From assembly GCA_030295235.1 (NCBI GenBank), contig AP026173.1, positions 1 through 64,000 of the forward strand: a stretch of DNA of 64,000 nucleotides, given 5' to 3'. A model generated the notes under the pieces. That model worked only from the letters and a program-made list of their open reading frames with translations. It ran no database searches and had not been told where the DNA came from. Made by a program: the position numbers and the translations under genes. Every line of letters starts with the position of its first letter. Position 1 is the stretch's first letter. This document shows, one piece after another, positions 1 through 61,351 of the stretch. The DNA comes from Fistulifera solaris. Taxonomy: Eukaryota.

Positions 1-446
1 CCCTAACCCTAACCCTAACCCTAACCCTAACCCTAACCCTAACCCCTAACCCTAACCCTCAACCCTAACCCTAACCCTAACCCTAACCTCCTAACCCTAA
101 CCTCCTAACCCTAACCCTAACCCTAACCCTAACCCTAACCCTAACCCCTAACCCTAACTCCTAACCCTAACCCTAACCCTAACCCTAACCCTAACCCTAA
201 CCCTAACCCTAACCCTAACCCTAACCCTAACCCTAACCCTAACCCTAACCCTAACCCTAACCCTAACCCTAACCCTAACCCTAACCCTAACCCTAACCCT
301 AACCCTAACCCTAACCCTAACCCTAACCCTAACCCTAACCCTAACCCTAACCCTAACCCTAACCCTAACCCTAACCCTAACCCTAACCCTAACCCTAACC
401 CTAACCCTAACCCTAACCCTAACCCTAACCCTAACCCTAACCCTAA
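1..446 (+). repeat. Telomeric (CCCTAA)n / (TTAGGG)n array, chromosome end
   Basis: Near-perfect CCCTAA tandem from base 1 to 446, with a few variant units (CCCCTAA, CCTCCTAA, CTCTAA) in the first ~160 bp. The C-rich strand on + at the window start is the expected orientation of a left chromosome end. Confidence 0.99.
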
Positions 447-917: not shown

Positions 918-965
918 AACGAACGAACGAACGAACTAACGAACGAACGAACGAACGAACGAACG
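918..965 (+). repeat. (GAAC)n microsatellite
   Basis: About 11 GAAC units with one interruption. Confidence 0.9.
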
Positions 966-1758: not shown

Positions 1759-4700
1759 TTAGACCGCAAAGCTCGAACAAGTCCTCATAAAGCCATTTTG
1801 GTGTGTCTCCGATAGGATCCCCATTTGACAAAGAGACTGAAAGCTTTGTCCGTCAGATGTTTTGTTGCGCTCGCGGTTATCACTGTGATCCAGCAGTACC
1901 GAAATGATCCATCCGACGTTCTCTGAGACCTTCGCGATTCGATTGTAGGACTGAATCATGTTGCTCATACTAAAAATGTTGCCAGCCACAAGAACATGCA
2001 CGCATTTGCGATTCTCGTTTCCTACCAAGCCACAAGTTGTTGTAATGTAGATTTGGATTTCACCATTCGTCCATCGTCGAAAGGCGCTTTGATCTCTCTT
2101 CATCGTCAGAATGACCAGTAATAACGCATGGAGTGAATCCACGTTGCAAGAGCCATTCTTCTAGCTGTGCTGCCGAGTCCGATTGTATTGCAAATGATGT
2201 GCATTGACACTCCTGAGTTTAGTTCTTTGACTCAGCTAACGACAAGATTGCTCATGCTAGCCACTAGGTCGCCCACGACCTAGTAGTCCACAGTGAAGCC
2301 TTGATCTACTTCTCCCATTACCTCGTCACGAAGAATTTTACGAGGAGGCACTTTGTTGAGGTTAAAAATGCGAACACTGGATCAATGAGCGCAAAGTCCA
2401 GCGTCCCGGAAAGAGTTATCACTGGAATATCTAGCGCTCCGATCTCTTGAAGCTCTTTGTACTCATTGCGAAAAGAGACTTCGGACAAGCATGTATGTAC
2501 CTCATCCATAACAATCGCGTGCAAAAGTCCGCCTTGAGGCAGCTTTTGTGGTTCTTGAAGAGCTCCACAAACTCCCGACAGCAACAAAAACACAACGTCA
2601 AGCTTTCCTAGTTTGTGATCGCCTTTGATTTGAGCAGCGATCTGTGCCACTGAAACGTCAAGCCTGCATTTCCCTATCCGAACTGATGTGTTTGCCAAAC
2701 GGGCCTCAGCCGATGCAATGTGATGTTTGTTCAGTAACTTGTAGGGTGAAAGAGCAATGATTGTGTTCAACGGCTTGTTGGAGAACCACGCCGCCAAAAG
2801 TGGCCCAAGCCATGCAAGTGATTTACCACTTCCGCAGGGGGTACCGACATGGCCGTGGTACTTCCCGCTTAGAACCATCTCCACCATTTGTCGCTGTGTG
2901 ATGTCCAGGAACTGGAAACCTGGTCCGTATCGCTGCCGAAGTCCCCCTCAGATGTCGTCACTGTCGATGCGCGCTTTTGTAGCAGAGTGGTACTTCTCCA
3001 AGTGACATTTGAAAGATCCGAATCAGCTTGATGCCTGCGCCTTGCAACTTTGTATGATATCGTTCGACATGTGTTCTCTCTGAATGTCCATGCTGGTTCG
3101 CCACAGATTCAGTTGCTGTCAAAATGGTGTGATCGACTTCGCCAAACAAGACATTGTGCCACGTTGAAAACACCTGCCGAATTTCCGTCTTTCTGGGTGT
3201 GTTTACAAGATCAAAGAGTGTCCGAGCAGCTTGCCGCATGCTGTAATGCGAGTTTTCGTTATTTGGAAGAGCTAGTAGCAGATTGTTGCCAAAAGGATTC
3301 AACTGCTGAAGTGCCGCCCGATACAAGATAAACACACGACACATTTCAGTTGGCAGAACATGCATGACCTTTCGCTTCACTGCAGCCTGTTTTGACACAA
3401 GTTTTACAGTCTTGTTGACCACCAAACCATACTCGGCCGTCCCTAGCGCAAAGTGAACTTCAGACAACTTCAGATGTCTGACTTCGGTAAGGAGCCCAAC
3501 TCCAAAACCGAAACAGTCAAATGCCAAATCAAGGTATGCAGCCACTTGCTGAAGCATCTCTGTCCGTGTTTCAGCGTTATCGCCATTCATTTGTAGATCC
3601 TCCGATGATATTGTTTGCTCTCCATTCTGCATTGTAAACGACAATGTTGCCTCATCAACGTGATGGACCACAACCGGCTCAAGCAGTTCAGAAAAGAGGC
3701 CCAGCTTTCCCCGCGGAAGATGCTAGCAAATGCTTCTTTGCACTTCTCCAGAGCTGCAGGTAGGAGACCAGAAAAGAAGTCTCTGTGATAGGTATTGTTG
3801 CCGTAGTAGATGTTTGTGCCGTCCGTCTCCGCCGTCTTGCTGTAATTTTTGCGTGCCGACATGTCTCGTGTAGCACGAATCAATCCAGAAAGCATTGCGG
3901 GCACCCTTGCACCTCACACTCTCTCAGCAATAAACCGCATTGTCTTGTCTCTCATTGTGTCTTGCTGCACGGCAAAAGAGCTTATCCGTGCTGCTCGCAA
4001 CATGTGGAGGACACGAGAAACCATGGAGGCCACCTCTCCACAGTCTCGGAAGCGAAGTTTCTTCTTGGTCAGTACCATGGAGCCGAACAATGCAGTATAG
4101 TTCAACATCGGTTTGCGGTGGAAAAGCCCTATCTTCTTCAAGGTATGCCGCCAGCATTTCCAACACAAACAACTGTGGATCTTGGGCTTGGGACTCGGTT
4201 CGGATGAATTCGGGAGAAATGCGAGCGGATGATAAATGAGCCTGTTCGCCACATGAAGCATACGAAATGCTTTAACTCCCGTAGTAGATCAACAATGTTT
4301 TCATAGAGAACAAAGGTTGCACCGTAGGTCGTGGTCGCTCACATCTAGCCCAGGAAAAGTCATCAGGCTTGCACGTGTCTTTGGATCAATCATCTTGATA
4401 AGAAGCTCTGTGTGATTCTTTCTCATCCATTCTTCCAGCCATTTGTGAATGAGTTCAAGCTCGGGCTCCATAGTCTGATCAATCTCTTTTCGCGGCGCGG
4501 AACAATGAATTCTCGAAACTTAGTATCAAAATCCAAGCCCAAGCAATGGCAAAGATCCACAAGAGGCTGAAGATGGGTGACATACGGTGTGGTCTCCTCT
4601 CCTCCACAGCGATATTTCTCAATCATCTCGATCGTTCGTGCAAAGTCAAACGTCTTGCTGCGCCCGCGATTTGTGTGAGGGAACTCGCGGTAGAGCAGAC

Positions 4701-5684
4701 AGCTTCCGGTTCTCGCCAACGTAAAGCTTCATTTTCCTCTGCTTGCGGCTGGGGCACTGTTTCTTGCGTCGAGATCTTCCTGCATGACCGGTCAAGATTG
4801 GACGCATCAATGTTCGCCTTTCCACAGTGAAGACAGATGAAAGCGTCCCTCATATCAAACGCCTGTGTCTTCCAGATCTTCATTTCGTCTGCCAGTTCCG
4901 TTGCAGTAGCTTGATCAAAGGAGAAGCCGGTGTGGTTTGCACGAACATGTTCAAAGATATTGGCAGCGGTAGTTTCATTCAAAAGAGCATCTTCCTTGAC
5001 AAATGTTTTGCAAGCAAGGCACTTCAATTTACCTTCCGTGAAAGTAAAACATGTTGAATGGCTTGGGAGGCGAGTTGACAGTTTCGGGTGGAACTGATTG
5101 AGCCGTTGTTGTCCAAGTCCGTGGCAGTACGCTTATGAGATGCTGGAGGAAGTTCCAACTGAGTCGTCAGAGTCGTAGCCGTAACTGTAGCCATAGTTGG
5201 AAGTTCACTTGTCACCAGAGCTGGTCCACCAGAATGATCTCCACCACCCAGACTGGAGTTGCATCGATAAGAGCCACAGCATTGTTGGTTGCTGTCATCG
5301 TTGCAGATGCAGTTGCAGTTCTGATTGGAGGAGTTGGAATGAGCAAAGGAGTTTGATCAGTCGTAGGACCAACAAGAAGTTCTTCAAAGTCATCATTGCC
5401 ATCCGTCATGAGCATCGTAGGAGGAGCTGGGAACAACGAAGAAGCTGGAGTTGTCACGGGTGCAGTTCCAGTAGCAGTTGGCGACCACAAGAAGGAAGGA
5501 GCAGGTGCTGGGGCACCTATCTCAGCTGTTGGATGATCTCCACTGCCCAAGTCCATAGCGGTAGTAGTTGCAGTCGCCGGGCCAGACCAGCCGTCCCATC
5601 TGTCCCAGCCATCCCGTCAGTAACATTCTCGCGGTCAGGAGTTGGGTAGTCACCGTTGAAAAGGTCTTCAAAGCTGTAGTCCAT
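1759..5684 (-). pseudogene. Fragmented telomere-linked helicase-like gene: Zn-finger-like N-terminus + tyrosine-recombinase-like domain + RecQ-type SF2 helicase
   Basis: Collinear minus-strand ORF fragments. 4623-5027 has CLAC...HVRANH and CLHC. 2958-3671 has GVGLLTEV, KT, EIRQ and HGHS...Y. 2318-2887 has motif I PCGSGKS, Ia SPYKLL, II IVMDEVH and III LSGTL. 1759-2142 has motif V ITTTCGLVGNE and VI MIQSYNRI. Several frameshifts and stops; 5' boundary approximate. Confidence 0.75.
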
Positions 5685-8189: not shown

Positions 8190-9237
8190 ATGTGTGACAT
8201 TGCGAAGGGGAAAATCACAGTCGCACTAGACTGGACGCCCAATACGAACCATGTTGGCATGTATGTTGCTTTGCAAGAAGGTTTTTACACCGCAGCAGGG
8301 CTTAATGTAACGCTCGTTCCTCCTAACGAGAATGAAGGAGCTGTTACGCCGCCCCGTCGGGTAGCCGCTGGCACAGCAACATTCGCAGTTGGGGCTTCTG
8401 AAACTGTCGTTTCGTTTGCCACAACTTCCACGCAACAAATGTCGCGCCTTGTGGCGGTTGCGGCTCTCCTGCAAGGCTCGACGTCTGCTATTTGCACTCT
8501 TCAAAGTTCTGGAATCGACACTCCGGCGAAATTACAAGGTCGACGTTTCGCTTCACATTGGGGCCGTTTTCTCGGATGCCATGGTTCGTACCATGGTAAA
8601 TAATGCAGGGGGCGACGGTAGCAAAGTAATTTTTCAGCCACTTCCAGGCCATGGCTACGCTGTGCCTGAAATCTTTGAAGCTGGAAGTGTTGTTGCTAGT
8701 TTTCTCGAACGCGGTCTTTCGGATTCAGCTTGGATCTTTTCTCATTGGGAGGGTCTCTTAGCGGCTCGTGCTGGACAGAAATTGAACGAGTTCAGCTGGG
8801 ATGATTATAATGTTGCGTACGGATATGCGCCGATCTTGTTTTGCCGCCCTGATACTATCTCGGACCACATGGACAAGGTCAAGGCCTTCTTGGCTGCTAC
8901 CGAGCGTGGATATAAAATTGCGGCGTCGGATCCGGTTCGGGGAGCAAAAGCGTTATGCGCCTGTGGACACCCATCGCTGAAAGACAAGGAATTTGTCATG
9001 GCGTCGGCGCAGGCTATTGCACCCGCTATTTTAAGCAAGACAGGAAGCTGGGGTACCATGACAATGGAGCGTTGGCGAGCTTTCGTAGACTTCTTGACGG
9101 ACAATAAGATTATTGTTGATCACGATGGCGTGGAATACGATCGATCCAAGATTATTGTCAGTGAGCTTTTCACTAACGATGCTTTGCCATGCGATTTGCG
9201 CGGCTTAGTTATAAAGAAGAATATAGTTGATAAATAA
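8190..9237 (+). CDS. NMT1/THI5-like (ThiY/SsuA-type) thiamine-pyrimidine binding/synthesis protein, one frameshift at ~8570
   Basis: N-terminal ITVALDWTPNTNHVGMYVALQEGFY, later KVKAFLAATERGY and WGTMTMERW...FTN. Two overlapping ORFs (8067-8603, 8389-9237). Alternative ATG at 8100. Confidence 0.85.
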
Positions 9238-30154: not shown

Positions 30155-33100
30155 TTATGCCGCCTCTATACACTCCGAACAACATGTTTCTAATTCACAA
30201 ACCACCGCGCAGTCGACAACTAGTGTGTCCAGCAAAAGTGAAGGATCAGCTGCAACAGCGCATATTTGTTCTGGAACGTCTCCGGTTAACTGGTTGTTGC
30301 CAAGTTGTACTTCTACCACAGTAGTTATTTGGCCGAGCTGGGTAGGAATCGGTCCGGTGAGAGCGTTTTCATTTAGCAAGAGATTCTCGAGTACCGTCAG
30401 TTGACCCAGTTCCGTGGGTATTAGACCCGTTAAAGGAGCATTGCGTCCCAAGTTCAAGTACTTCAAATTTGTGAGTGATCCAAACTCTAATGGAATAGTT
30501 CCAGAAAACAAACAAGCTCGAGCGTTAAATCGCTCTAGATTCGTCAGCAATCCGAGCTCAGGCGGCAAAGGCCCAAATAGCAATGTTGAATCAAACGCGA
30601 TGTCTTTAAGGGTAAACATGGTGAAAAAATCCAATGGAATCGCTCCGCTCAGTGCACTATTTCCAGATAAATGAAGTGTTTCTGATGTAGCGAGAGCAAG
30701 CGGTGTTAGTCATCGTGTTTAGACAGTGCATACGGCATCGATGCGTGTGGCGACTTACCTAACGACAAAGCTGTCGCTATCTCCGCTGGTATTGTCCCTG
30801 TGATATTGTTTCTGGATAACCGAAACTCGGTCAGATTGGGCGAAGTTTCCCAGCCTGTGGCTGGAAGGGAACCCGAGAACAGATTGTCATCCAAAATCAA
30901 GACCTCAATGCTTGGTAGACTGAGCAATTCGGCAGGGAAGGGTCCCGTCACACCCGTCCCATTGAGATTGAGCTTCTTGAGGGCAGTTAACGCAGTATAG
31001 TCAGTGCCTAATGTGCTGCCCAGAACGTTCCCCGCTAACGACAGAATTTCTAGCCCCGTCAAAGCCGCCAGATTCGGCAGCGGACCAACAAGTCCATTCG
31101 ATTCCAAGTAGAGCTCACGCAGCGTCACTATTTCGCCGAGCTCTGCCGGTATCGGACCGGTGAGAAAGTTGAGATTTAAATTTAACACTTCAAGTGCCTG
31201 TAACTTTGTCAACACCGCTGACTGTACTGGGCCAGTTAATTGGTTCGTGTTCATGTCAAGAACCCTCAATCCTGTAAGCGACCCGAGATTTTCGGGAAGT
31301 TCACCTGAAATCGCATTATCGAACAAGACTAGTTCCTGGAGGCTCACCATATTCCCGACTTGTTCAGGGAGGGGGCCAAACAATGAGTTTGATGACAAGT
31401 CGAGAACTTCTAAGACACCGTCAGCCGCTCCGTCAAGTGCAATCCCTGTGAACGTATTTCGGGCCAGTTTCAGAGTTTTCAGGGTTGAGCTTGACAAAAG
31501 CTCCGACGGAATTTGACCAAATAACAGATTTTCGCTTAAATCAAGCTCAACCAAAGACGGAATCGAGAAAAGCACAGTCGGTGGGGAACCTTCAAAGAAA
31601 TTCAAGTATGCACGAACTATCTCGAGACTGCCTAGTTCACCGATTTCTTCTGGTATCGCAGTGAAACCATTTTCGAAGATAATCATTTCTTTCAGACTGG
31701 TGAGCAGTCCAATCTCCGTCGGAAGCGCTCCGGTAAAGACATTGCTGGCAAGATTAAGTGTAGCTACGTTTGGAAAACAGTGAGATGTGTTTCGTGCATA
31801 ATTAACAACTGATCCATTGAATGCTTCTTCGTACCTAATGCACCGAGGTTACCGAGACTGGTAGGGAGCTGCTGCGACAGCTCATTTCCCTCTATTTCCA
31901 AAGAGACTAAACTGGTTAGTCTGCCGATTTCGGAGGGCAATGTCCCAGTATGAAAGTTCAGATTCGCCCTGAAGCCGATCAAACTAGAAAGGCTGCCGAT
32001 CTCGGTTGGCAATGTGCCATTGAAAAAGTTATTCGAGTAATCCAGTACTTGCAAGAGTGACAAGCTACTTATGCCAGATGGAATCGTCCCGTATAAGTCA
32101 TTACCGGAAACGTCAAGAATTCCTATGTTTTGAAATGATGAGAACGTGAGATATTTGCAAATCAAAAAGTACAAAGAGATGATAGGACGAGGCCTCTCAC
32201 ACACCTAAGGAATTCAGACCACGAATTTCAGAAGGAAGCTCCCCAAAGAGATCGTTTTCACTCAAACTAATTTGAATAACTTTGCCATCATCGTCACACG
32301 TCACTCCATACCACGGTGTACAAACAGGATCCGGACCCGTCCAACCATCCCGAACGCGCCACGAACTCCCATTCGTGGCATAAAAGAGTGTATTCAAAGC
32401 GTAAATCGTTCGAATTTCTTCTTCGTCACCGGGAACAGCCAAGTCGGGAAATGACTCAGTCACTTTTTTTGTACGCAAGATTCTGGGCTGTGCCTTCAAC
32501 ATTTATTGATTCGTCATCGGTTAAAGCAAACACAAGGAAAGCATCGATTGAGTCGAACACCGGAAGGGAGGTTGGAGCACCTATCAGAGCGGCGGGTGCC
32601 GGACTGATTGTCGGTGCAGCTTCAATTAACGTCGAAGGTTGTGTACTTTCCGCACTTCCAGCCACCGGTGCAGGACTGACTGTAGGTCCAGTGGCGGCTT
32701 GCGTGGCAGGCTGCGAGCTCTCGCCTGTACCATCGTCAGGAGCCGGGCTCGACGATGACTCTCCTGACGCAGGCTGTGAGCTTCCTCCGGCAGCAGCTGA
32801 AGGCGCTGGGCTTACAGAAGGCGCGGCGGCAACAGGCTGAGAGCTTTCTGCAGTACCTGCTGGGCTCTCGGTTGTTCCGGACAAAACAGGAGAGCCTGAA
32901 CCACCCGATCCAATTACAGAAGGTGTATTAGTTCCCGACGAAGCTGCTGTTGGCAATCCTGTTTGAAAAGATGGCAATGTAGGTGATCCCAAGACTGGTG
33001 CGTCTGACCCAGTAGATGGCGATGTCGGCAGTACAGTCTGAGAAGCTGGTGTCGGCACTATCGTTAGAGGCAAAGAAGGTGTGGGAACCAATGTTAACGG

Positions 33101-33938
33101 GGAAGCTGGCGTCGGCACAATAGTCAGCCGCGATGAAGGTGTCGGAACCAGTGTTAAAGGGGAAGCAGGCGTGGGTACTATCGTCAGCGGCGATGAAGGC
33201 GTCGGAACCAGTGTTAAAGGGGATGCTGGAGTCGGTACTATCGTCAGCGGTGATGAAGGAGTTGGAACCAGTGTTAATGGGGAAGATGGTGTAGGTACTA
33301 TCGTCAGCGGTGATGAGGGTGTCGGCACTATCGTCAAAGGCGTTGAAGGCGTCGGCACCAGTGTCAAAGGTGATGCAGGTGTCGGCACTATCGTCAAAGG
33401 CGTTGAAGGTGTTGGAACCAGTGTTAACGGGGACGCTGGTGTTGGTACTATCGTCAAAGGAGATGATGGTGTTGGTACCAGAGTGAGAGGCGAAGCAGGC
33501 GTCGGAGCCGGAGTTTCCGACGACGACGATGCTGCAGTAGGCTCTCCGGTTTGAGAAGACGGCAATGTAGGCACTCCTGTTTGAGACGTTGAAGTCGGAC
33601 TCGCTGTCTGAGACAATGTTGTTGGTACATCTGTTTCAATTACTGGTAATGTAGGAATATCGATAGGTCTATCTCCCGCTGGTGCAGGTGTATCATCCGT
33701 CGGTGTTCCTATCGGCGCCGGATTTCCCCCCTGCAGGCGATGGTGCTGGAGATATCGTCGCATCAATTTCCGGTGGCGGCTGCCCATGTCGTGCGAATAT
33801 CAGTTGTTGAGTTTCTTCCACAGATAAGCCATTGAATAATCTTCTCCATGACTGCCATGAATTATCGGAAGACGAAAGCAACGCCGCCACAACGAATCCG
33901 GAAGCAAGCAAATAGGCTTTCCTCCGTATTTCCAGCAT
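30155..33938 (-). CDS. Large LRR (plant-type LxxLxLxxNxLxGxIP) protein with an N-terminal Pro/Thr mucin stalk; at least three introns
   Basis: More than 20 LRRs across ORFs 30155-30634, 30706-31686 and 31764-32204; N-cap ALNTLFYATNGSSW...C..WYGVTC; hydrophobic N-terminal segment. Confidence 0.88.
33046..33500 (-). repeat. Coding 30-bp (10-aa) tandem repeat PTP(A/S)SPLT(L/I)V
   Basis: About 15 units; protein sequence conserved while codons are diverged. Confidence 0.9.
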
Positions 33939-34963: not shown

Positions 34964-37900
34964 ATGTCAGACTATAAGGAAATAGTCTCCTCGAGTAAAA
35001 TGATAGCGTCGCTTATTACGGAACTCGATAAGCCGAACGGACTATACACGTGGTTGGTGCTTCACGGCGAGACTAACTCTTTGACGCGTTATGTTGCGTT
35101 GTCGAGAACGTTTTGTCAAGAAAAACGACCTTTACCCAATTTAATGCCGGATGTGTTAGAGAAACTGGTGACGACGCAAGAAAATTTAATTTCTCTGTAT
35201 GATTTGTGGTGCTGTTTCTGGAATACCTACGAACGTATTCAAGATAATGAGCTGTGGTTGAATTCTGTCGAGCGCCACCCATTTGTCATTCTGTTTAATA
35301 GCTCAATGCGACCTGGCTTGAGGTTTACAAGTGTTGCTTGGAAGGTTGTCGTCAAGATCCGTAGCAAGCATCCGACTTTGGATCCTTGGATGTTGAGTTT
35401 GGCGGCGTTTTCGTTGCTCTTGAGAGCCATGAAGAGTCATTCTGCAAGCTATGAACAGTGGAATCGACTCTGCGAAACTCGATTTGAAAATTCGGTCGAT
35501 GATTATCTAGTAAAGAAACTGTATGAAAGCGAATGTCGATGCTGGGAGGCTCCTCTCGATCCTCCGCAAGGATTCACCCCGGAAAGCATTACATCTTTCG
35601 TGGCGGAATTCATTACACATGTTTTTCCAGCGAAAAAGGGAAAAATGATAAAGGCGAACCGTCTCTCGCAAACAATATCACCCAGTGGCTTGACAAGTAT
35701 GAGAATAACACGGAGAACCTGAATCCCATGATACTCATGGCGGAATACGTCAAATATATGAAAAATCGCAAAGGTTTAAATCCATTTGTTTTTCTTGCGA
35801 AACCCTCGGACGATCTCATACAAGAAGCAACGAGTTCTTTCGACGCAAATGCGTCTCAAGCGCCAGAGAAAGAAACGCCGGCATTACAAGGAACCGATGT
35901 CAGAGAAAGTTTGAAGGAGTTAGATACGTCCACATCGCCGCAACCACACGAAGAGGAAGGTTCAGACGATGACGCTAATGGCATTGGGTTTGATGAAGAA
36001 TCTGGAGGTGATATTTCTATGCGGCACGAGGATGATGACGTGGATGAAATGTCGACGACCTCACAGCCCACGCCGCAGAATGATGATCAAGTAGAAGGAG
36101 CTAGTCGACTGATAGCGATGTTGATTACCGAAGTTGACAAACCGAACGGCTTGTACACGTGGCTATTGCAGTTCGGCGAGCAGTACAGTTTGACAGATTT
36201 TGTTGCGTTATCTACTACATTCTGTCAAGAAAAGAGTCCTTTACAAGATAGCACACCAGTCTTGTTGCAATCGCTAGTCGCAACTAAGGAAAACCTTGAT
36301 TCCCTGCATCGTTTGTGGTGTTGTTTTTGGAACACCTACGATCGTATTCGAGATGACCCTTTGTGGAAAGAAGCCATCGAGCCTCACCCTTTGTTGACAG
36401 ATCTCGATAAGACTTCATCACCTGGCATGAAGTTTTTAACGGTTGCTTGGAAGATTGCAGTTAAATTACGGGAGAGAAATTCGAAACTGGATCCTTGGAT
36501 TTTGAGTTTGGCAGCAATGTCCCTTCTTTTAGAAGGGATGAACAGCCATCTTGCAAGCTATCAAGAATGGGTAGAATTTCGCTCGGCGCGGTTTAGCGAC
36601 TCACACGATGCATATTTACTCAGCAAACTTTATCAAAGTAATCGCCGTTGCAAGGACTATCCTCTCGATCCTCCGCCTGGTTTTATACCTGACCTTGTCT
36701 CGTCCCTCGTGAAGACCGTTATCAATACCCAAGTCTTTGACGGACTTACATCGAAAACGACACTAGCGGAAGCTATTATAATTTGGTTTGAACGGCTGGG
36801 GAATAGATGGGAAAATCTAGACCCCACTACATTGATGACCGAATACGTGAAGTTCATTGAAAACGGAAAAGGGCTCAATCCGTTTGTTTTTCTTGCAAAA
36901 TCTTCCGACATGTTTTTGTCACAAAGAAAAAAGACTGGCAGTCAGGTACTTCTCCCAGTAGTGGGAACTGGACCATTAGCATCACAAGGGTTAGCTTCGA
37001 AAGAACACCGCACCGAAGGTCGAGCATTCGATGCATCACCCTCTCGGAATGAAGAAGACATTTCTGATGAGGGTATGGGTAACGCGCTCAATGACGAAGC
37101 TGACGATGACGCTTCTGTACAGCAAAACGACGAAAATGACAACACGAATGGTAATAGTGACAAGCACCCCGCCAATGACGGCGAAGATAATGCAGATGGA
37201 GCAAAGAAGCGAAAGTTATACCAAGATGCTTCGCGAAGTCAACGTTTATCTACCGCTATGGCACTGGTTGTGCAAGAACTTTCCAAAATGAATCAGGGTT
37301 TGCCAGACTCGGCCGCCCAGGTCCACTCTATATCCGATTCCATGGAATTGAACGAATGGACTGTGTCCTTGCTGGTTGTGGATCATGTAGCGCCAAGTAG
37401 CAGGTTGGTTCGATACTTGGACGAAGCGTCGCCGAAACAATGGACGAAAGAACTTATTCCAACACTCAATCGTGCTTTGCTGCGGTTCTCACAAGAGAAT
37501 TTAGTTGAAAAGGCCACTCGGACGGCACCTGTATCTGTGTCAAAGTCGGATGGAGTAGTGCAGATTCATGGGAGTGTGACGGATGATAAGATCATGAGCA
37601 AAGCTGTGATTCTGCTTTATTATCACGCGCTTGAAGCAATTCTGACATCGGAGTCGGAACGACTGAAAATAACATCACATCCACAGATCGTGATGTACTC
37701 TGTTTTCACAAGGCTCTGTTGGCATGCTGCATGTGGTGCGTGACGAAGGCTATCGGTGCTACGCAAAAACTGCGGTCTTCCCCTTGCCTACAAGCTTTGT
37801 CGATACAATCGACACTACGAGTTTGCGACAGCAACCCTTACGATTTCCTGAAGGTCTCTGAATCTTTTTTACGTGTTTTGTGCCTTGGAACATCAAATCT

Positions 37901-38686
37901 TAAGTTGGGATCACCGTTACCACAAAAATTACCGCGTTTGCTACACCGCGATCTCCAGTCGATGGAAGTGACCATTTTGGATTCCTTGTTGTGGTCCACT
38001 TCTATTTTGAATGGCACGGCTGGTTCTTTACCTGAGCAAATTGAAGATTTTGTGAGCAAGTCGAATGAGAATGTCACCCTCTGGCCTCCGGAAATACTGG
38101 CACCAACCTTGCGAGAGGAATCATCGGAGTCTGGTAATAATATTGCCTATCCTACACCGGAGCACGAGGACTTTGCCGAATACCGGTGTGTGAACTTTTG
38201 ATCCGATCCGTGGTGAAGCTCTCCTTTTCGCGTTTCGAAGACATCTGCGGTTTGCTGAAAGTTCCTGCCCAGTATCCTCTGGTGACACATGCTTGGGTGG
38301 CTTTTCGTCATTTGCTGCGTCATCATGTAGAGATGTTGTTCGATCGACACGTAGATCAGTGGATTTTATGCTGTCTTTACGGTGTGGCTAAGGTTCTGTC
38401 GTATCCGCTGACCTTTGCGGAAATCATTGAAGCTTACATCAAGTCGCGTGGTCCGATAGTGGGAGATGTGACTTGCCAACACATCTTGCGCTACATTCGT
38501 ATGGATAATACCAGTCACGATTTAACGACCGGTGATGTAATTGCGCTGTACAACCATGTTTGGGTCCCGAGTATGAAATCATACTTGATGGAGAGTGCTT
38601 CGCTCCGCGAGAGTGCCAAAAAAGTTAAAGAGTTGCTTCGTGCGAAAGAAGTCGCGATGGCGGACGAACCCGTAGATGAACAATAA
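34964..38686 (+). CDS. RBR: Retinoblastoma-related pocket protein with a duplicated N-terminal domain, frameshifted
   Basis: Pocket A: LLYYHALEAILTSESERL...ACCMWCV...PYDFLKVSESF...ILDSLLW. Pocket B: LFDRHVDQWILCCLYGVAKV...TFAEIIEAY...GDVIALYNHVWVPSMK. Confidence 0.85.
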
Positions 38687-43526: not shown

Positions 43527-43903
43527 CAAGGATAATTACATAGGATTGAACCAAATTTATATTTAGGAGATAAAACGTGATTGAAAACCGGATGTTTGTT
43601 GATACAGTCCTGTAGGAGTTCAACGTTATCGGTAAAAATCATGTCATATAAGCTTTAAGTGTAAATATTCTGTCACGGAGAGACTTTCGACAAGCACCCT
43701 GACACGAAAGAAGAATGACCGCTTGCTTCGCCTACGTTATGACCTATAGTCGCAATAAGAAATGACCCTTCACGACACCGAGGACAAGAAAACCCAAGAT
43801 ACTTGTACACGCTCACAATTATTCAATCGACTGATTAGCATCCTCTTCTTTGTTGTTGCTTTCCTCTGCTTCACATTTACCTCTTCTCTCATTAATAGAC
43901 AGC

Positions 43904-46900
43904 ATGACTGAGGCGAATAACGCAAACGCAACGACAGCCGTTAATCCGTTGAAAACAGATGCAGATCTCTTGTCGCTCTTGAAACGACTGGATGGCATTC
44001 ACAAATACAAAACCTTTCAACGATGGAAAGCGCGATTCTTGGATCGTCTGGAATCTTTCTTGTACGAGGCGGGCATGGGACCAGCAGATGAATCCTGTCA
44101 AGCGTTTTCGACTTTGTTGCAGAAACAAATTCGGCGGGGGCAAGCCGTACAAGCGCATGTTGCCCACGGCGAATTGACTGCCGAGAAAAAGACCGTCAAA
44201 GCGGCGTTGGCGCTGAATGAAATGTGCACTTTGTTAACGAATGCTGTACAAGAAACGGAATTGTTGATTCCTGCGAATACAAAGGAAGAGAAGCAACGAG
44301 GTTACACAAAGTTCCATCTAGGAGCCGTATTGATTCGACAAGGATTTCATCAATATCAAGCGATGCAAGCCATTGAGGCGGATTTGCAGCAACTGTCGCG
44401 CGATTTAGAACAAGTGGCCGATAAGCAACAGCAAGAACTCTTTCATATGTATCACACACAGGTACAGCGATTTTGTGATGTCATGGCCGATTTGAATTTG
44501 TATGAAGTCATGAAGAAGTGTTTGCAATTTGCGCAAGCTCCCGAAGAAGAAGAAAGCAGTGATGAAGAACCCATTGTCATTCAAATTGTTATTCATACAC
44601 ACGACGGGAAGAAATTGACATTGACGCTGGATCAGACAGAGACGATTGGGAACATTAAGGAGAGTATCGTGGCAGCATGTGGTATTCCGGTCGAACGACA
44701 GGTGCTGACCTTTCAAGATACTCTTCTGAACGATCCCGACGCTACTTTGGTGGGTTGCGGTATTTCAGATCAGTCGGAATTGAAAGTCGAACCATTCCGT
44801 ATACCCATTACAGTCAAGACAATGGATGGAGTAATTCATTCCATGCAAGTCGACCCGACGGATTATTTGACGAGTATTAAACAGCAACTGACGGAACGAA
44901 CTGGCATTGCACCCAACAACCAAAACCTCACTTTGCAGAACACACCACTAGATGATTTGAAAACTGTATCCGAGAATGGTATTGCAGCAGAGAGTCAGTT
45001 AGAAATGGAACCCAAGATGTTGAACTTAAACGTCACGCTGCCCGGTGGGAAATTTGTGGTAGTATCAGTTCCCCCTTCGGATACGGTAGAGGATTTAAAA
45101 GAAAAAGTTGCCCATCAAACGGGGCTCGCGGCACCAAGACAAGTCATAAAGGTCGCGGAACAGGCACTGCCTGTTGATCAACCGCTGCGCGATTTGGGTT
45201 TGAATGATGGTTCAAATATCGTCGTCGACCTCTTTCAAATACCGATTCAAGTCAAAACTATGGACGGGAAGTCGATATCGTTGATGATCGAACCGACCAA
45301 GTATTTAAGTGACGTGAAACGGCAATTGGAAGCGGATTCGGGTTTGCACGCCGCCAACATGCAATTGAGTAGAGACGACGAGGATGGGAACTCTGAAGTG
45401 CTGGACAACGATATGAAGACAGCGCAAGATTATGATATCCGGGCGGATGCGGTTTTGGACTTGGCACCCAAGAAGATGCCGATCCGGGTTCAACTTCCGG
45501 ATGGAAAAGAAATAGAAGTCGAAATTAGTCCTAGCGATACGGCAGATGTTATCAAACAAGCGGTTTATGACAAAAGTGGTTTGGCCCCTTCGCGACAAAA
45601 GTTAATGTATCAAGAAGAAGAAATGCCGCTGGATGAAACGGTTCGAAAGATGGGCCTACAACCTGGGGATTTACTTCAGGTGGATTTTAATAAGGTGCCT
45701 ATTATAGTTAACACGATGGACGGACGACAAATTAAAGTCGATATCGATCTTGCGGACAGCCTTGGTGATATCAGAAAGCACTTGGAAGTAGAGACGGGCC
45801 TTCCTGCGAACAACATTCAATTGTTCTTGGACGGGAATGCACTAGATGACGACCAAAGGACTGCCGAAGACTATGGTGTTGAGGCTGGCAGTGAGCTCGA
45901 CTTAGAGCCTAAATCAATTACCCTAACAATTGAGTTACCCGATGGAAAAACGATTGCGCTGGTTGTTTCACCGCAGGATACGACTCATGATATAAAGGCA
46001 AAAATTCAGGCCAAGTGCGGCTTGGCCCCGGAACGCCAAGTGGTTTGTCATAATGGAAAAGAATTGCCGCCAGATGGAACAAAAGTACGAGAGATGGGTA
46101 TTCCAGCTGATGCAACGTTACAAGTGGGTTTACATAAAATCCCAATCGTCGCAAAGACTATGGATGGACGCAAGATCCAAGTGGACGTTGAACCTGCTAC
46201 GACTCTTGCTGACCTAAAGAAGCAAGTCCAAGACGAGGCAGGGATTACAGCGGACAACATCGCGATGAGCATGGGCGGCCATCCTTTAGATGATGATGGT
46301 AAATCTCTCAACGATTATGGAATACGAGCGGGTAGTGAGTTGGATTTGGAGCCTAAATCTATTGCTGTGACAGTCGAGTTGCCTGACGGTACGAAACATC
46401 CTATCACGATTCGCCCCAGCGATACGATAGGCAATCTCAAGCAAGCAATCGAGGACGCAACTGGGATCCAAGCTCCTCGCCAAGTTGTTCATTATCAAGG
46501 TAACGAAATTAAGCCTGACCAGACAGTTCGGTCCATTGGTATTCCCGACGGTGCGACGCTGCAAGTTGGCTACTTTAAAATACCCATTGCTGTCAATTGC
46601 GTTGATGGTTCCCAATTGCATGTAAACATTGAATTGACTGCTACGTTAAGCGATATCAAGAAAGTCATTGAGCAAGAATCAGGAGTACCCGCAAACAATC
46701 AGAGCTTGAGTTTCGACGGCAGTCCGCTGGAGGACGATAGTAGCAAAACAGCTGTCGATTATGGCATTCAGGCAGGTAGTGAAATCGATATGGAACCCAA
46801 CACGATGCGATTACAGGTTGAACTTCCGGACGGGTCAACTATACCATTGTTTGTCAGACCGGCGGATTCTACCGATGCAATCAAAGATTTGATTCATAAA

Positions 46901-48187
46901 GAAACGGGTATAGCTCCTCCACGGCAGTCCTTGCATCACACAAACGGTCAGCCTCTTTCTGTAAACAAGACGGTACGAGAACTGAATCTGAAAGACGGAT
47001 CGACGATTCAGGTCGCGCTTTCTAAAGTACCTGTGACAGTAAAAAGTGCCGATGGAAGAGAAACTGAGCTCATGGCAGATCTGCACGATAATCTGATTGC
47101 CATTAAAGAGCAAGTTGAAAAAGAATTTGGTTTGCCGGTGAGCAATCAAAACCTACTGATTTTGGATCGTATCCTCAAAGACAATGACAGGCCTGCTAAA
47201 GATCAGGGTGTCGTTTCCGGATCGATTCTTTACATGGAACCGAAGCTTATGAATATTACAGCTATCTTACCGGACGGTACGCATCATGAATTGCAAGTCC
47301 AGCCTGGCGACTTGGTCGATTCGGTATCGGATCAAATTGCTCATGTCTCCGATTTGGCGAGTCATCGACAAGTGCTCAAACTAGATTCCCGCACTTTGAA
47401 TAAGGTCGAGACACTACGTGATGCGCGAGTCCTACCCAATTCTACAATCCATGTGAGTATCTATACTATTCCCATCACTGTGCAAACAGCCGACAATAAA
47501 AGCTACGATTTGAACGTCGAGCCAACGTCGATGATTAGTGAACTGAGGAAAACACTTGAACAGGAAACGGGCATTGACGAAAAGAAGCAAATATTGATGT
47601 ACAATGAAACAGAACTGAAAATGGGAACCATTAAAGCCGGCGGTCTACTACCCAAATCTGTTGTGCACTTGAGTGTTCGCAAAGACTCTATTATCTTCGT
47701 GGATGTGAAATGCGGTACCCTCTTTGCCGTCGATCGCGATGAAGTGATTGAACGGAAAATCTTGACAGCCAATCAAGGCAATCGTCTCGACTTTTTAGAA
47801 GCGACTCAAGACAGCAAAGTTAAAGAGAACATGAAGAAAGCCATGCTGAGTTCCCCATCTCTCGGTGTAGCGCCACAAGTCGTCGTCGTGTCAACCCAAG
47901 TGGATGACTACGAGTTGGAAGAAGCGGCCAAAGTCGCGAGTATGTGGGGCGTAAGTTTGAAGAAGCGTGAAAAGAACAAGAAAGGTGAAGAGTTCATTTT
48001 TGTGGATCCGAAAACGGGCGCGTGTGGCGAATTGTCTCGCAAAAGGTATCTCGACATGACCTTTATTACATTGGAAACATTATCAAACGGCGAAGAAACG
48101 GTGGCCGAACGAGAGACGGATACAATGACTTACGACAAGTACGTGATGGACATTCGTCGCGTTTTTGACATCAAATCGGCGACTTAA
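43904..48187 (+). CDS. Protein with 14 tandem ubiquitin-like domains between an N-terminal helical domain and an unknown C-terminal domain
   Basis: Uninterrupted ORF; ~73-aa units with I.V.T.DG...V.P.DT...LK..I....G.....Q.L...G..L.D..T...GI..GS.L.L. Confidence 0.9.
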   Translation: MTEANNANATTAVNPLKTDADLLSLLKRLDGIHKYKTFQRWKARFLDRLESFLYEAGMGPADESCQAFSTLLQKQIRRGQAVQAHVAHGELTAEKKTVKAALALNEMCTLLTNAVQETELLIPANTKEEKQRGYTKFHLGAVLIRQGFHQYQAMQAIEADLQQLSRDLEQVADKQQQELFHMYHTQVQRFCDVMADLNLYEVMKKCLQFAQAPEEEESSDEEPIVIQIVIHTHDGKKLTLTLDQTETIGNIKESIVAACGIPVERQVLTFQDTLLNDPDATLVGCGISDQSELKVEPFRIPITVKTMDGVIHSMQVDPTDYLTSIKQQLTERTGIAPNNQNLTLQNTPLDDLKTVSENGIAAESQLEMEPKMLNLNVTLPGGKFVVVSVPPSDTVEDLKEKVAHQTGLAAPRQVIKVAEQALPVDQPLRDLGLNDGSNIVVDLFQIPIQVKTMDGKSISLMIEPTKYLSDVKRQLEADSGLHAANMQLSRDDEDGNSEVLDNDMKTAQDYDIRADAVLDLAPKKMPIRVQLPDGKEIEVEISPSDTADVIKQAVYDKSGLAPSRQKLMYQEEEMPLDETVRKMGLQPGDLLQVDFNKVPIIVNTMDGRQIKVDIDLADSLGDIRKHLEVETGLPANNIQLFLDGNALDDDQRTAEDYGVEAGSELDLEPKSITLTIELPDGKTIALVVSPQDTTHDIKAKIQAKCGLAPERQVVCHNGKELPPDGTKVREMGIPADATLQVGLHKIPIVAKTMDGRKIQVDVEPATTLADLKKQVQDEAGITADNIAMSMGGHPLDDDGKSLNDYGIRAGSELDLEPKSIAVTVELPDGTKHPITIRPSDTIGNLKQAIEDATGIQAPRQVVHYQGNEIKPDQTVRSIGIPDGATLQVGYFKIPIAVNCVDGSQLHVNIELTATLSDIKKVIEQESGVPANNQSLSFDGSPLEDDSSKTAVDYGIQAGSEIDMEPNTMRLQVELPDGSTIPLFVRPADSTDAIKDLIHKETGIAPPRQSLHHTNGQPLSVNKTVRELNLKDGSTIQVALSKVPVTVKSADGRETELMADLHDNLIAIKEQVEKEFGLPVSNQNLLILDRILKDNDRPAKDQGVVSGSILYMEPKLMNITAILPDGTHHELQVQPGDLVDSVSDQIAHVSDLASHRQVLKLDSRTLNKVETLRDARVLPNSTIHVSIYTIPITVQTADNKSYDLNVEPTSMISELRKTLEQETGIDEKKQILMYNETELKMGTIKAGGLLPKSVVHLSVRKDSIIFVDVKCGTLFAVDRDEVIERKILTANQGNRLDFLEATQDSKVKENMKKAMLSSPSLGVAPQVVVVSTQVDDYELEEAAKVASMWGVSLKKREKNKKGEEFIFVDPKTGACGELSRKRYLDMTFITLETLSNGEETVAERETDTMTYDKYVMDIRRVFDIKSAT

Positions 48188-54239: not shown

Positions 54240-55480
54240 ATTCAGAAGGCTCCACGCTCTTGACAGAATTTGGAAAATAAGCAGATTTTCTGTAAGAAAA
54301 AAAATACCTATTCATTCCAGGATTTCAGAAAAAAAAACACACACAGTCCAGAAATACTGGAACATGCATGCACAAAAGCGTGTGTAAACAGGCATGAATC
54401 TAAACGGTAAACCCGTTTAGATTCACGGAACAAGAATCACCGATTCCAGAGTATCTGGACCCAAAACAGATTTTCTGTAAGTCCCAAACGAACAATTCCA
54501 GAAAATCTGGAACATGCAAAAAAGTGTTTGTCTGACGAAAACGCCCATTCCAGAATTTCTGGAACTCCCACAGATTGTCCGCGAGACAGAATGAGCGGTT
54601 GCAGATTTTCTGCAACGTGCACTATATCTTTGTGTGAACTTGAATCACCGATTCCAGAATATCTGGACCCAAAACAGATTTTCTGTAAGTCCCAAAAAAC
54701 ATTTCCAGAAAATCTGGAACATGCAAAAAAGTGTTTGTCTGACGAAAACGCCCATTCCAGAATTTCTGGAACTCCCACAGATTGTCCGCGAGACAGAATG
54801 AGCGATTCCAGATTTTCTGCAACGTGCACTATATCTTTGTGTGAACTAGAATCACCGATTCCAGAATATCTGGACCCAAAACAGATTTTCTGTAAGTCCC
54901 AAACGAACAATTCTAGAAAATCTGGAAAATACAAAAAGTGTTTGTCTGACGAAAACGCCCATTCCAGAATTTCTGGAACTCCCACAGATTGTCCGCGAGA
55001 CAGAATGAGCGATTCCAGATTTTCTGCAACGTGCACTATATCTTTGTGTGAACTAGAATCACCGATTCCAGAATATCTGGACCCAAAACAGATTTTCTGT
55101 AAGTCCCAAACAAACATTTCCAGAAAATCTGGAAAATGCAAAAAAGTGTCTGTCTGACGAAAACGCCTATTCCAGAATTTCTGGAACTCCCACAGATTGT
55201 CCGCGAGACAGAATGAGCGATTCCAGATTTTCTGCATCAAGAATCACCGATTCCAGAATATCTGGACCCAAAACAGATTTTCTGTAAGACTTAAACAGAC
55301 GATTCCAGATAATCTGGAAAATGCCAAAAATTGCATTTTTGACGAAAACACCCATTCCAGAATCTCTGGAACTCCCACAGATTGTTTGTAACACAGAAAA
55401 GCAATTCCAGATATCTGTAACGTGCACTTTATCTTTGTGTGAACAAGAATCACCGATTCCAGAATTTCTGGAACGGTGCA
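54240..55480. repeat. Satellite with a ~207-bp unit built from four ~52-bp palindrome-headed sub-monomers
   Basis: AATCACCGATTCCAGA recurs at 54435, 54643, 54850, 55057, 55242 and 55448; decayed copies at both edges. Confidence 0.95.
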
Positions 55481-58767: not shown

Positions 58768-59723
58768 CGGAAGGATGCTCGATCCAATATCAGGACGCTC
58801 TATGTAATTGAAACGGACGTTGTGCTGTGTCTAATTTCGTGTGAGTTACAACTATGAACAACGTTACATAAAGAATGAAGTCAACATAGAAACGCCAAGC
58901 TCATCGTGTTTACTAGAGACCCCTCCGTCGCTTTCCTGTTGTGTCGTTTTATGTGTTGCTCGAGAAAGAATAATGATTCATGACTGAAGTGCAGTCGTGG
59001 CGAAAGCGGACAACATTTTGGTTCATAGTAAATGCAAACGACATCATTTGGAAGGCTTTTTGACGCAAAATAGAAAGTCGTACAAAAGAAAACAATGCAA
59101 AGGACTATTTCATGGCAACAAAGACAAATGGAGCTCAAAAAAAACCAACAAATAAATTGTAGGTAAAATTGCCACTCGAGAGCATATCGATTCATTCATG
59201 ACTGAAAAGCAGGAAAAGCTGAACCAACACTGTGGCCTATAGTAAATAACCTTACTGTTTTTTGACTCAGACGGAGATTCTGAGGTGCTCTATTCTTTCT
59301 CATTTACCGACCCTCATCATTTCTTTACACTAGATCCTTTCTCAGCATCTCGCCTTTGCGGCTGGGGAGCTTTTTAAGACTCCCAGGCATTAGATTCATA
59401 GATTTTTTTATTGCCTCGGCGTCTCTCTGGTATTTTGTGCGATGTCGTGACTAGATTTAGTCACGCTGTAGCGCGCGATAAAATGCGCGCGAAAAATGCT
59501 GACTCACAAAACATGCAGTCTCAAAAAGTGACATCCATCCAAGCATCACAATCGTTCTTTCTCACACAATTCAAGTGTTTTCATAATCGCCTTGATGTTA
59601 TCTTTCTACCAGCTCATCCCTATCAAATACTAACATCCGACTGTCGTCTCCCTTTACCGTTATTACATGTACTTTCGGTTGTTTGTATTGTCAACATTGC
59701 TTTGTTTTACATTAACTATCAGC

Positions 59724-61351
59724 ATGTCGACCGTTGCCAAGAAAGCCTCTTGTCAAGCCGTCTATTACTGGTTTCGCAACGATCTACGCTTACATGATCA
59801 TCCCGCACTGACCGCCGCCATCCAACGAGCGTCGCAATTGCAAGTTCCTCTCATTCCAGTCTACTGCTTTGATCCGCGTTACTTCGGCTCCGAAGCTTAT
59901 TCGGAATACGGAAGTTGGAAGTGCAGTCCTCGCCGTGCGCAATTTGTGTTGGAATCTGTCAGTGATTTACAACAGCGTCTTATGAATGCGGGCTCGAATT
60001 TGGTTGTCGTCACGCGACAAACTCCGGAAGACTACTTTATGACATGCAAAACGACCCATCACCCAAAGGCGTTTCTCTTTTATCAGGAAGAAGTATGTCG
60101 GGAGGAAACGACGATTGCCAAGAAAGTGACTCAACACTTTGATCGACAAAATGTACAGGCTATTTGGGGTTCCACACTCTACGAATTATCGGAATTGCCG
60201 TATTACGATGCTCCCGAGTCCATGCCCGATACTTTTACTCCGTTCCGTAACAAGGTCGAAAAGAAATGTGTCATCCCCAAGCCATTACCCGCACCCACGA
60301 AATTACCACCGTTTCCAGCCGATTTGACAACACAGCCCGCATCGAAATTGACCTTGGCGGACATTGGATACGAGGGAATGTTGGAGAAGTTGTCACACGA
60401 TCCACGTGGTGTCATGGAATTTGTGGGAGGTGAAACGGCCGGTTTGGCACGGGTCAAAGATTACATTTGGACCAAAGATTTATTGCGTCACTATTTTGAT
60501 ACCCGCAATGGTATGCTGGGTGCCGACTATTCGTCCAGAATTTGCACCGTGGCTGGCCCACGGATGCATTTCACCCCGCTTTGTCGCACAACAGTGTCAA
60601 CGGTATGAACAAGAACGCGTCGAAAACAAATCGACTTACTGGTTGATCTTTGAATTATTGTGGAGGGACTTTTTCAAATTCTTTGCTTGGAAACATGGGG
60701 ATACCTTGTTTCCAGCCCGGTGGTACGATTCAAAGCACGAAGCGTTGGAAAACGTTTGAGAAATCCTTGCAAGCGTGGAAGGAAGGAAAGACCGGGTATC
60801 CCTTGGTCGATGCGAATATGCGCGAACTAAACGCCACGGGGTTTATGAGCAATCGAGGCCGTCAGAATGTTTGCTCCTTCTTGTGCTTGGAATTAATGCA
60901 AGATTGGCGCTTGGGAGCTGATTACTTTGAGAGCACATTGTTGGACTACGACGTCTATTCCAACTGGGGTAACTGGTGCTCGGGAGCTGGTATGACTGGC
61001 GGACGTATCAATCGTTTTAATATTGTGAAACAATCCAAGGACTACGATCAGCACGGAGAATATGTCAAGCACTGGTTGCCCGAGTTAAAAAACGTTCCAG
61101 CGAATCTTGTGCATGAACCGTGGAAAATGACGCAGTTTCAACAAACGGAATACAATTGTCGACTAGGTGTCGACTATCCTCATCCCATTGTGAAACCGTT
61201 TGATGCAACGCCCAAGCAGGGACCCGACACTAAAGGAGGACGCGCGAACGGACAAAAGGGTAAGCTGGATACTAACAATCCGAACCGCAGTCGAGGACAA
61301 CGAAGGGATATGAAAAGTCTCAACAAAGGATCCTATAGAGTCGAAGGCTAA
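59724..61351 (+). CDS. CRYD: Cryptochrome DASH (photolyase family), two frameshifts
   Basis: [77 protein letters not shown]. Confidence 0.93.

Follow-up and report, generated by a model that had tools for sequence, protein, structure and literature searches.

Since the 1990s, many fungi have been known to carry telomere-linked helicase (TLH) genes at their chromosome ends. The TLHs of fungi and of a choanoflagellate are described, in the accessible parts of two reports, as carrying two C2H2 motifs and, directly upstream of their RecQ helicase domains, a "TLH domain" of ~250 residues (10.1101/2024.02.27.582403, 10.1101/2022.03.07.483234). In the accessible part of the first of these reports the function of TLH proteins and of the TLH domain is given as undetermined, no fold is assigned, and the word "recombinase" has 0 occurrences (10.1101/2024.02.27.582403). 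Here we describe a gene of this type from the diatom Fistulifera solaris. It lies on the minus strand at the beginning of contig AP026173.1 (GenBank assembly GCA_030295235.1), of which we analyzed positions 1 to 64,000, a stretch of 64,000 nucleotides (nt) that we refer to throughout as the window. Our analysis centers on a minus-strand open reading frame (ORF) of this gene, 3671..2958, that encodes 237 amino acids. We consider it likely that this ORF encodes a TLH-type domain preceding a RecQ-like helicase, that it is a divergent member of the catalytic domains of the tyrosine-recombinase/type IB topoisomerase superfamily, from a family that keeps the catalytic Arg, Lys, Arg, His and Tyr but not the first His of HxxR, and that a leucine in the first motif of this ORF, together with most of the frameshifts in the gene, reflects sequence errors at CpG sites.

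The window gene shares its subtelomeric position and domain order with TLH1 of M. oryzae, Tlh1/2 of S. pombe and the TLHs of U. maydis, F. oxysporum and B. cinerea: it stands beside terminal repeats, encodes a RecQ-type helicase domain and carries a domain of ~230 amino acids upstream of it. The described hosts, in the sources as far as they are accessible, are fungi and one choanoflagellate, whereas the window gene comes from a diatom, and the finding extends the TLH family to this lineage. Among the papers listed in our searches of openly accessible literature we found no link between TLH proteins or their domain and tyrosine recombinases; such a link may exist elsewhere. As far as this literature goes, the gene family is known and appears here in a new lineage, and it is the recombinase reading of its signature domain that is new.

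A candidate recombinase domain upstream of the helicase

An initial annotation of the window had pointed to a recombinase-like active site in this ORF, complete except for the arginine of box I. Its reading of the motif is exact: the ORF contains GFGVGLLTEVRHLKLSEV, in which the box I position is a leucine encoded by CTC, one substitution away from CGC. The lysine-bearing segment, the second histidine and a tyrosine nine residues further on are all present as well. The annotation had also taken TEIRQ as the HxxR motif, and of this the arginine holds and the histidine does not, a threonine standing in its place.

A family search of 1.8 billion representative proteins (E ≤ 0.001) returned 73 matches, from which P0042 was dropped as an unrelated repeat protein. 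Conservation was counted at each position over the domain segments of 71 relatives, with the window and P0001, a database protein described below, left out. Numbered along the ORF, the residues at issue are the following:

3492..3494, minus strand: Leu60, at the box I Arg position; CTC in the window, one base from CGC; P0001 and contig X1 both have CGC (Arg) here (see below)
3411..3413, minus strand: Lys87, candidate catalytic Lys on a beta-hairpin, in VVNKTVK; 70/70 relatives
3186..3188, minus strand: Thr162, in place of the His of HxxR; from the ORF translation
3177..3179, minus strand: Arg165, Arg of the HxxR motif, in TEIRQVF; 69/71 relatives
3084..3086, minus strand: His196, second His (GHS), in ANQHGHSERTHVERY; 68/69 relatives
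3057..3059, minus strand: Tyr205, candidate nucleophile nine residues past His196; 66/69 relatives

Position 60 is an arginine in 67 of 68 relatives, and the glutamate of the box I RxxE motif, Glu63, is kept in 65 of 68; Lys87 is invariant, and Thr200 is found in 66 of 69. The best conserved columns among the 71 relatives are exactly the positions that the initial annotation had named, and the motif is therefore more than chance. Two full-length alignments, A1 (69 rows, without P0030, P0035, P0042, P0059 and P0060) and A3 (60 rows), have the same conservation as the domain segments. The full R-K-R-H-Y set is present in 64 of 73 aligned rows (median pairwise identity 26%); five rows are truncated, and four deviate, namely the window, P0018 and P0051 (Tyr to Cys in both) and P0040. 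P0030, which is poorly aligned, departs from the set too. Homologs thus keep the two arginines, the histidine and the tyrosine, as had been anticipated, and the lysine in addition. The view that the site lacked nothing except the box I arginine needs amending, since the first histidine is also absent; its absence is a trait of the whole family and not a defect of this copy.

The predicted structures belong to the same fold family. An AlphaFold2 model of the window ORF, built with alignment A1, has a predicted local distance difference test (pLDDT) score of 90.1 and a predicted template modeling (pTM) score of 0.84; in it, Lys87 sits between strands E78-85 and E100-106. We compared this model with 48,161 representative chains using VIA-align, whose own notes class Z values of 8-9 as middling. 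The best match is XerA (Z 9.0, root mean square deviation (rmsd) 3.3, 131 aligned residues, model residues 41-226), and the others include XerD (7.7), Cre (7.4), XerH (7.4), Flp (5.5), type IB topoisomerases (5.7-3.8) and Ndc10 (5.3-4.5). Rows 1-29 consist of recombinases, integrases, topoisomerases IB, Ndc10 and similar proteins, and the first unrelated row has a Z of 3.4; three rows, 9hjt_H, 9rd5_H and 8a0a_A, we take to be recombinase-like. The second model was made for P0008, an intact relative of 534 amino acids (pLDDT 91.4), and it matches XerH (8.9), XerA (8.8), Cre (8.8) and Flp (6.7), and over both models the topoisomerase IB matches reach Z values of up to 6.5. Residues 423-534 of P0008 match the N-lobes of the RecQ-family proteins RECQL5, RECQ1, WRN and BLM (Z 7.3-6.0), with RECQL5 at Z 7.3 and 25% identity. 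In a Foldseek search against the PDB the best rows are Cre, XerH, XerA, XerD and integrases. Both predicted models therefore have the tyrosine-recombinase fold, and the weight of this predicted match lies in its clean separation from unrelated chains and its coverage of the domain, the Z values being only middling.

A comparison of sequence profiles places the candidate catalytic residues in register with those of known recombinases. The family profile was compared by hhalign with an alignment of 13 PF00589 integrases of E. coli K-12, giving a score of 31.0 (P 0.0016, 125 columns). In this comparison the box I Arg of the family is aligned with the Arg of XerD GLRVSEL and the family Lys with the XerD hairpin Lys, while Arg165 falls on the Arg of HVLRH, His196 on the His of LGHS and Tyr205 on the Tyr of TTQIY, all in XerD. 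The result is similar when XerC, XerD, FimB and FimE only are used (P 0.0021). As controls, the reversed alignment scored 16.8 and 20 block shuffles scored 11.5-18.9. Look-alikes found with a protein language model include integrase clusters. Altogether, homolog conservation, two fold models and the profile-profile register with XerD support the recombinase reading first made by the initial annotation.

The relatives also share the helicase. Among 40 relatives scanned with Pfam, 29 have a DEAD domain (PF00270), which in 28 of the 29 starts 28-90 residues past the recombinase-like domain. PF00270 plus PF00271 was found in relatives and RecQ_Zn_bind in one; 10 of the 40, which are fragments, have no Pfam family match. 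A zf-C2H2 match lies near the N-terminus in two of those scanned, P0003 and P0005. Two further observations concern single relatives. Residues 1431-1587 of P0028 (1607 amino acids) resemble the Tet-like 2-oxoglutarate (2OG)-Fe(II) dioxygenase family PF20515 at an E-value of 2.6e-4, below the cut-off, and Basidiomycota and Mucoromycota appear among the atlas look-alikes of P0003, which we record as a lead only.

The box I leucine, the frame changes and rival explanations

The only near-identical protein on record, P0001, is a hypothetical protein of Fistulifera solaris of 1109 amino acids with 99% identity, and at box I it reads GVGRLTEV, with arginine. The only sequencing run that covers the stretch dates from 2015 (X1) and gives one contig over 1712-5700; runs X2 and X3 yielded no match, and no RNA run is listed for the stretch. 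This contig has C for A at 3493 (place on the plus strand), which yields CGC, and TAC (Tyr) for the TGA at 2950..2948. Over 4 kilobases (kb) it differs from the window by 32 letters and 24 gaps. On the window, P0001 breaks up into 20 blocks, separated by 19 frame shifts or offsets of a single base, apart from one clean intron of 78 nt. The other version of the gene thus reads as a single long open frame.

The placement of the differences is not random. For a test of their relation to CpG, the listed 31 substitutions and 12 gaps were grouped into 24 events, with 9 further gaps outside the listing. In the X1 version each of the 24 has a CpG no more than 3 nt away. In the window version this holds for 17 of the 24, where random placement gives 8.4 ± 2.3 and 1 of 2000 trials reaches 17. 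The changes are single-base gaps, CGT versus CGC, and small complex swaps, with no transitions of the kind produced by deamination of methyl-C. Long-read base-callers produce such errors at methylated CpG. Because the differences cluster at CpG and the Arg version has CGC, we read the leucine, the TGA stop and most of the frameshifts as probable errors of the window sequence in a methylated subtelomere. The Arg-bearing version that the initial annotation predicted is present as CGC in P0001 and X1, which may be the same locus in an older assembly, and of the two states it offered for this copy, inactivated or mis-sequenced, the second fits better, given the CpG-linked differences and the open frame of P0001. 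Features that mark a subtelomeric gene as a "pseudogene" can thus be CpG-linked sequencing errors.

Several points weigh against the reading that we favor. The Z values of 8-9 are only middling, and Foldseek gave no match to the PDB at E ≤ 0.001 (best 9.3e-3, with template modeling scores of 0.2-0.4). The 4-sequence hhalign comparison shifts the Lys by 3 columns, and the probability assigned by hhalign itself is low (16%). No Pfam recombinase family, PF00589 included, matches the ORF at E ≤ 1 or P0001 at E ≤ 10, and sequence searches of the PDB with the ORF (phmmer) and with a 15-sequence profile returned nothing relevant, only centrin at E 1.5. Where the first His of HxxR would stand, the 71 relatives most often carry Leu (25), Thr (25), Val (6) or Arg (4). 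P0001 and X1 agree, but they probably go back to the same 2015 data and so count as one witness; they may, moreover, represent a different copy, at another locus than the window. Finally, it is shared architecture and position, and not a sequence alignment, that tie the window gene to the named fungal TLHs.

These points bear unequally on three other explanations. The missing Pfam and PDB sequence matches to recombinases could mean that the likeness of the motif arose by chance in an unrelated helical domain. This we regard as highly improbable, since two independent models reach the same fold family, the residue register agrees and the hhalign controls lie far lower. A second explanation accepts the domain and takes the window copy for a genuinely degenerate paralogue, with its Arg changed to Leu, a stop codon and ~20 frameshifts, and P0001 for its intact sibling at another chromosome end. 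In its favor, 32 letters and 24 gaps separate the window from X1 over 4 kb, the variant words of the window are absent from X1 (share of words 0.72), and long ORFs elsewhere in the window are intact (43835-48184), so that the assembly is not error-ridden throughout. Fungal TLH families hold many broken copies, according to the accessible part of one report (10.1101/2024.02.27.582403). However, gaps are about as many as substitutions and the listed gaps are single-base, which is unusual for natural decay; the 24 listed events all lie beside CpG but lack the C-to-T or G-to-A pattern expected from methyl-C deamination; the sole run that covers the stretch contains one version only; and an ordinary NMT1/THI5-like gene at 8552-8566 also shifts frame beside a CpG cluster. 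We consider decay unlikely, though it is the alternative to which we give the most room.

The main rival on function leaves the fold in place and takes away the chemistry. The domain could be a recombinase fold that binds DNA without cutting it, like Ndc10, and that brings the helicase onto chromosome ends. In favor of this, the structural matches include Ndc10 (Z 5.3-4.5), the family as a whole lacks the first histidine of HxxR, and catalysis is a prediction. Against this, the five residues of the chemistry are the best conserved in a family with a median identity of 26%, which is hard to explain without selection on catalysis, and we judge binding alone to be rather improbable, a little more so than decay. 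We thus favor a model in which the ORF encodes a divergent catalytic domain of the recombinase/topoisomerase superfamily whose box I arginine has been obscured by an error at a CpG site.

Gene layout and the chromosome end

The TLH-type gene runs on the minus strand from an ATG at 5684 to ~1760 and is transcribed toward the telomere. From its start it encodes a CxxC...HxxxxH motif, a conserved region, the recombinase-like domain, a DEAD/RecQ-like ATP-binding domain and the remains of a helicase C-terminal half. In the window it can be followed only through many frame changes, among them those at 2574, 2972, 3682, 4083 and 4212, by three-frame translation. The features are as follows:

5682..5684, minus strand: start codon of the P0001 gene model (MDYSFEDLF...), from the P0001 tiling
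4932..5021, minus strand: N-terminal CxxC...HxxxxH zinc-finger-like motif, from the sequence and the family consensus GxxCxxC...HxxxxH
3680..4310, minus strand: conserved region before the catalytic domain, composed of a bundle of helices and a small beta unit; interrupted by frame changes in the window
3840..3917, minus strand: intron of 78 nt, GT...AG (GTGAGG...TTACAG), with an in-frame TGA inside; P0001 joins ...AERV to KTAETDG... exactly
2958..3671, minus strand: recombinase-like ("TLH") domain, from fold, conservation and residue register
2948..2975, minus strand: break between domain and helicase, a frame change near 2972-2975 plus the TGA at 2950..2948; P0001 and contig X1 read through
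2318..2887, minus strand: ATP-binding domain of the helicase (DEAD/RecQ-like), containing the motifs GSGKS and DEVH; PF00270, E 3e-12
1760..2282, minus strand: helicase C-terminal half, from three-frame translation, several frame changes needed
1..446, minus strand: telomere tract, (TTAGGG)n, reaching the first base of the window

At the N-terminus the zinc-finger-like motif has a weak match to Pfam zf-C2H2_2 (E 0.045), and a second C2H2-type motif of the window gene is without clear His residues. The conserved region at 3680..4310 is, by its predicted structure, a possible counterpart of the core-binding domain of recombinases; the comparison behind this suggestion, of the P0008 model with Cre over residues 1-389 (223 aligned, rmsd 12.4), makes a weak basis for it. 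At the other end of the gene, the helicase C-terminal fragments GHSDDEERSKRL, TTTCGLVGNENRKCVHVLVAG and QSYNRI were matched by eye to the family consensus STxxxxVGNExxxC...QAxxRLR, and the ORF at 1759-2142 has no match to Pfam Helicase_C.

Matches to TTAGGGTTAGGG (≤1 mismatch) number 66 in the window, against a chance expectation of 0.08. As all of them lie inside 1-446, at the window edge, the tract is a chromosome end. Outside 1-446 the 64-kb window holds no interstitial telomere repeat, and no inverted repeats of ≥60 nt were found in it. The outermost telomere repeats, at 1-180 (minus strand), include the variants TTAGGGG, TTAGGAG and TGAGGG, and those at 160-446 are perfect; the variants may be genuine or may be read errors close to the end of the assembly. 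Between the tract and the end of the gene (~1760) lies a spacer of 1.3 kb, with a short run of GTTC/GTTCGTTC repeats at 930-965 (minus strand), and the domain ORF is 2.5 kb from the tract.

Further into the window the plus strand carries several other genes. The NMT1/THI5-like gene mentioned above is split at 8552-8566 over two overlapping frames beside three CpGs. Positions 1-97 and 102-214 of its Pfam profile fall in the two frames, 13 nt apart, with no room for an intron, and the split reflects an indel of the assembly or else a genuine frameshift. The intact ORF at 43835-48184 (1450 amino acids, 4.3 kb) contains at least 12 ubiquitin-family repeats (PF00240, E 2.9e-163) and is polyubiquitin-like. 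A retinoblastoma-family gene (RB_A, RB_B) at 37635-38683 and a photolyase/cryptochrome gene (DNA_photolyase, FAD_binding_7) at 59634-61348 are each split over adjacent ORFs, by either introns or frame changes. Tandem arrays occupy 32988-33587 (12 copies, 30-nt spacing) and 54431-55398 (4-5 copies of ~207 nt).

Possible action at chromosome ends and relation to known systems

As to catalysis, DNA target and biological role, we infer a sequence of events in which the protein would bind DNA near chromosome ends and Tyr205 would attack a phosphodiester and so become joined to the DNA by a covalent 3'-phosphotyrosyl link, helped by Arg60, Lys87, Arg165 and His196 acting on the phosphate. The fused helicase would unwind from the nick, and strands could then be exchanged or copied between chromosome ends, which would account for the spread of these genes among subtelomeres. 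Extending this to the family, we tentatively suggest that the TLH domain of fungi, choanoflagellates and diatoms could be an active tyrosine recombinase or a topoisomerase-like nuclease, and TLHs helicase-recombinase fusion enzymes, an idea that we see as possible rather than probable. If it is true, TLH genes would be selfish DNA elements, inserting or copying themselves at chromosome ends, or else a host machine for telomere-telomere recombination, and there would be a direct enzymatic account of their telomere linkage and of their role when telomerase fails. A catalytic domain of the tyrosine-recombinase type would bear on how these genes remain at chromosome ends and spread among them, and on whether they have a part in telomerase-independent telomere maintenance.

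With Xer, Cre and the lambda-type integrases (PF00589) the domain shares its catalytic fold and an Arg, Lys, Arg, His and Tyr that agree in order and register, and the motifs RxxE, xxxRH and GHSxxTxxxY are common to both. It differs from these tyrosine recombinases in having no PF00589 match, in carrying Leu, Thr or Val for the first His of HxxR, and in being fused to a RecQ-like helicase and zinc-finger motifs at eukaryotic chromosome ends. Cryptons and their domesticated relatives, whose relationship to the domain was checked by Pfam scan only, are likewise eukaryotic tyrosine-recombinase genes, multi-copy and selfish-like. No element ends or target duplications were seen at the window gene, though no search aimed at them was made. 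Goodwin in 2003 and Kojima and Jurka in 2011 are said to have described Cryptons as eukaryotic tyrosine-recombinase DNA transposons, and we know of no helicase described in them.

Type IB topoisomerases have the superfamily fold in common with the domain (Z 5.7-6.5), and they and some resolvases (ResT, TelK) are also without the canonical first His. By analogy, the missing first His makes the putative active site of the TLH domain look more like that of a type IB topoisomerase or a resolvase. No telomere resolvase is among the structural matches listed. The enzymes in question make or relax DNA, in bacteria and viruses, and unwind it without a fused superfamily 2 (SF2) helicase, unlike the window gene. 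ResT, the telomere resolvase of Borrelia, couples the same chemistry with ATP-dependent DNA unwinding at telomeres, as stated in the accessible part of its description (PMC5388405), and in this it offers a functional parallel to the combination of domain and helicase described here.

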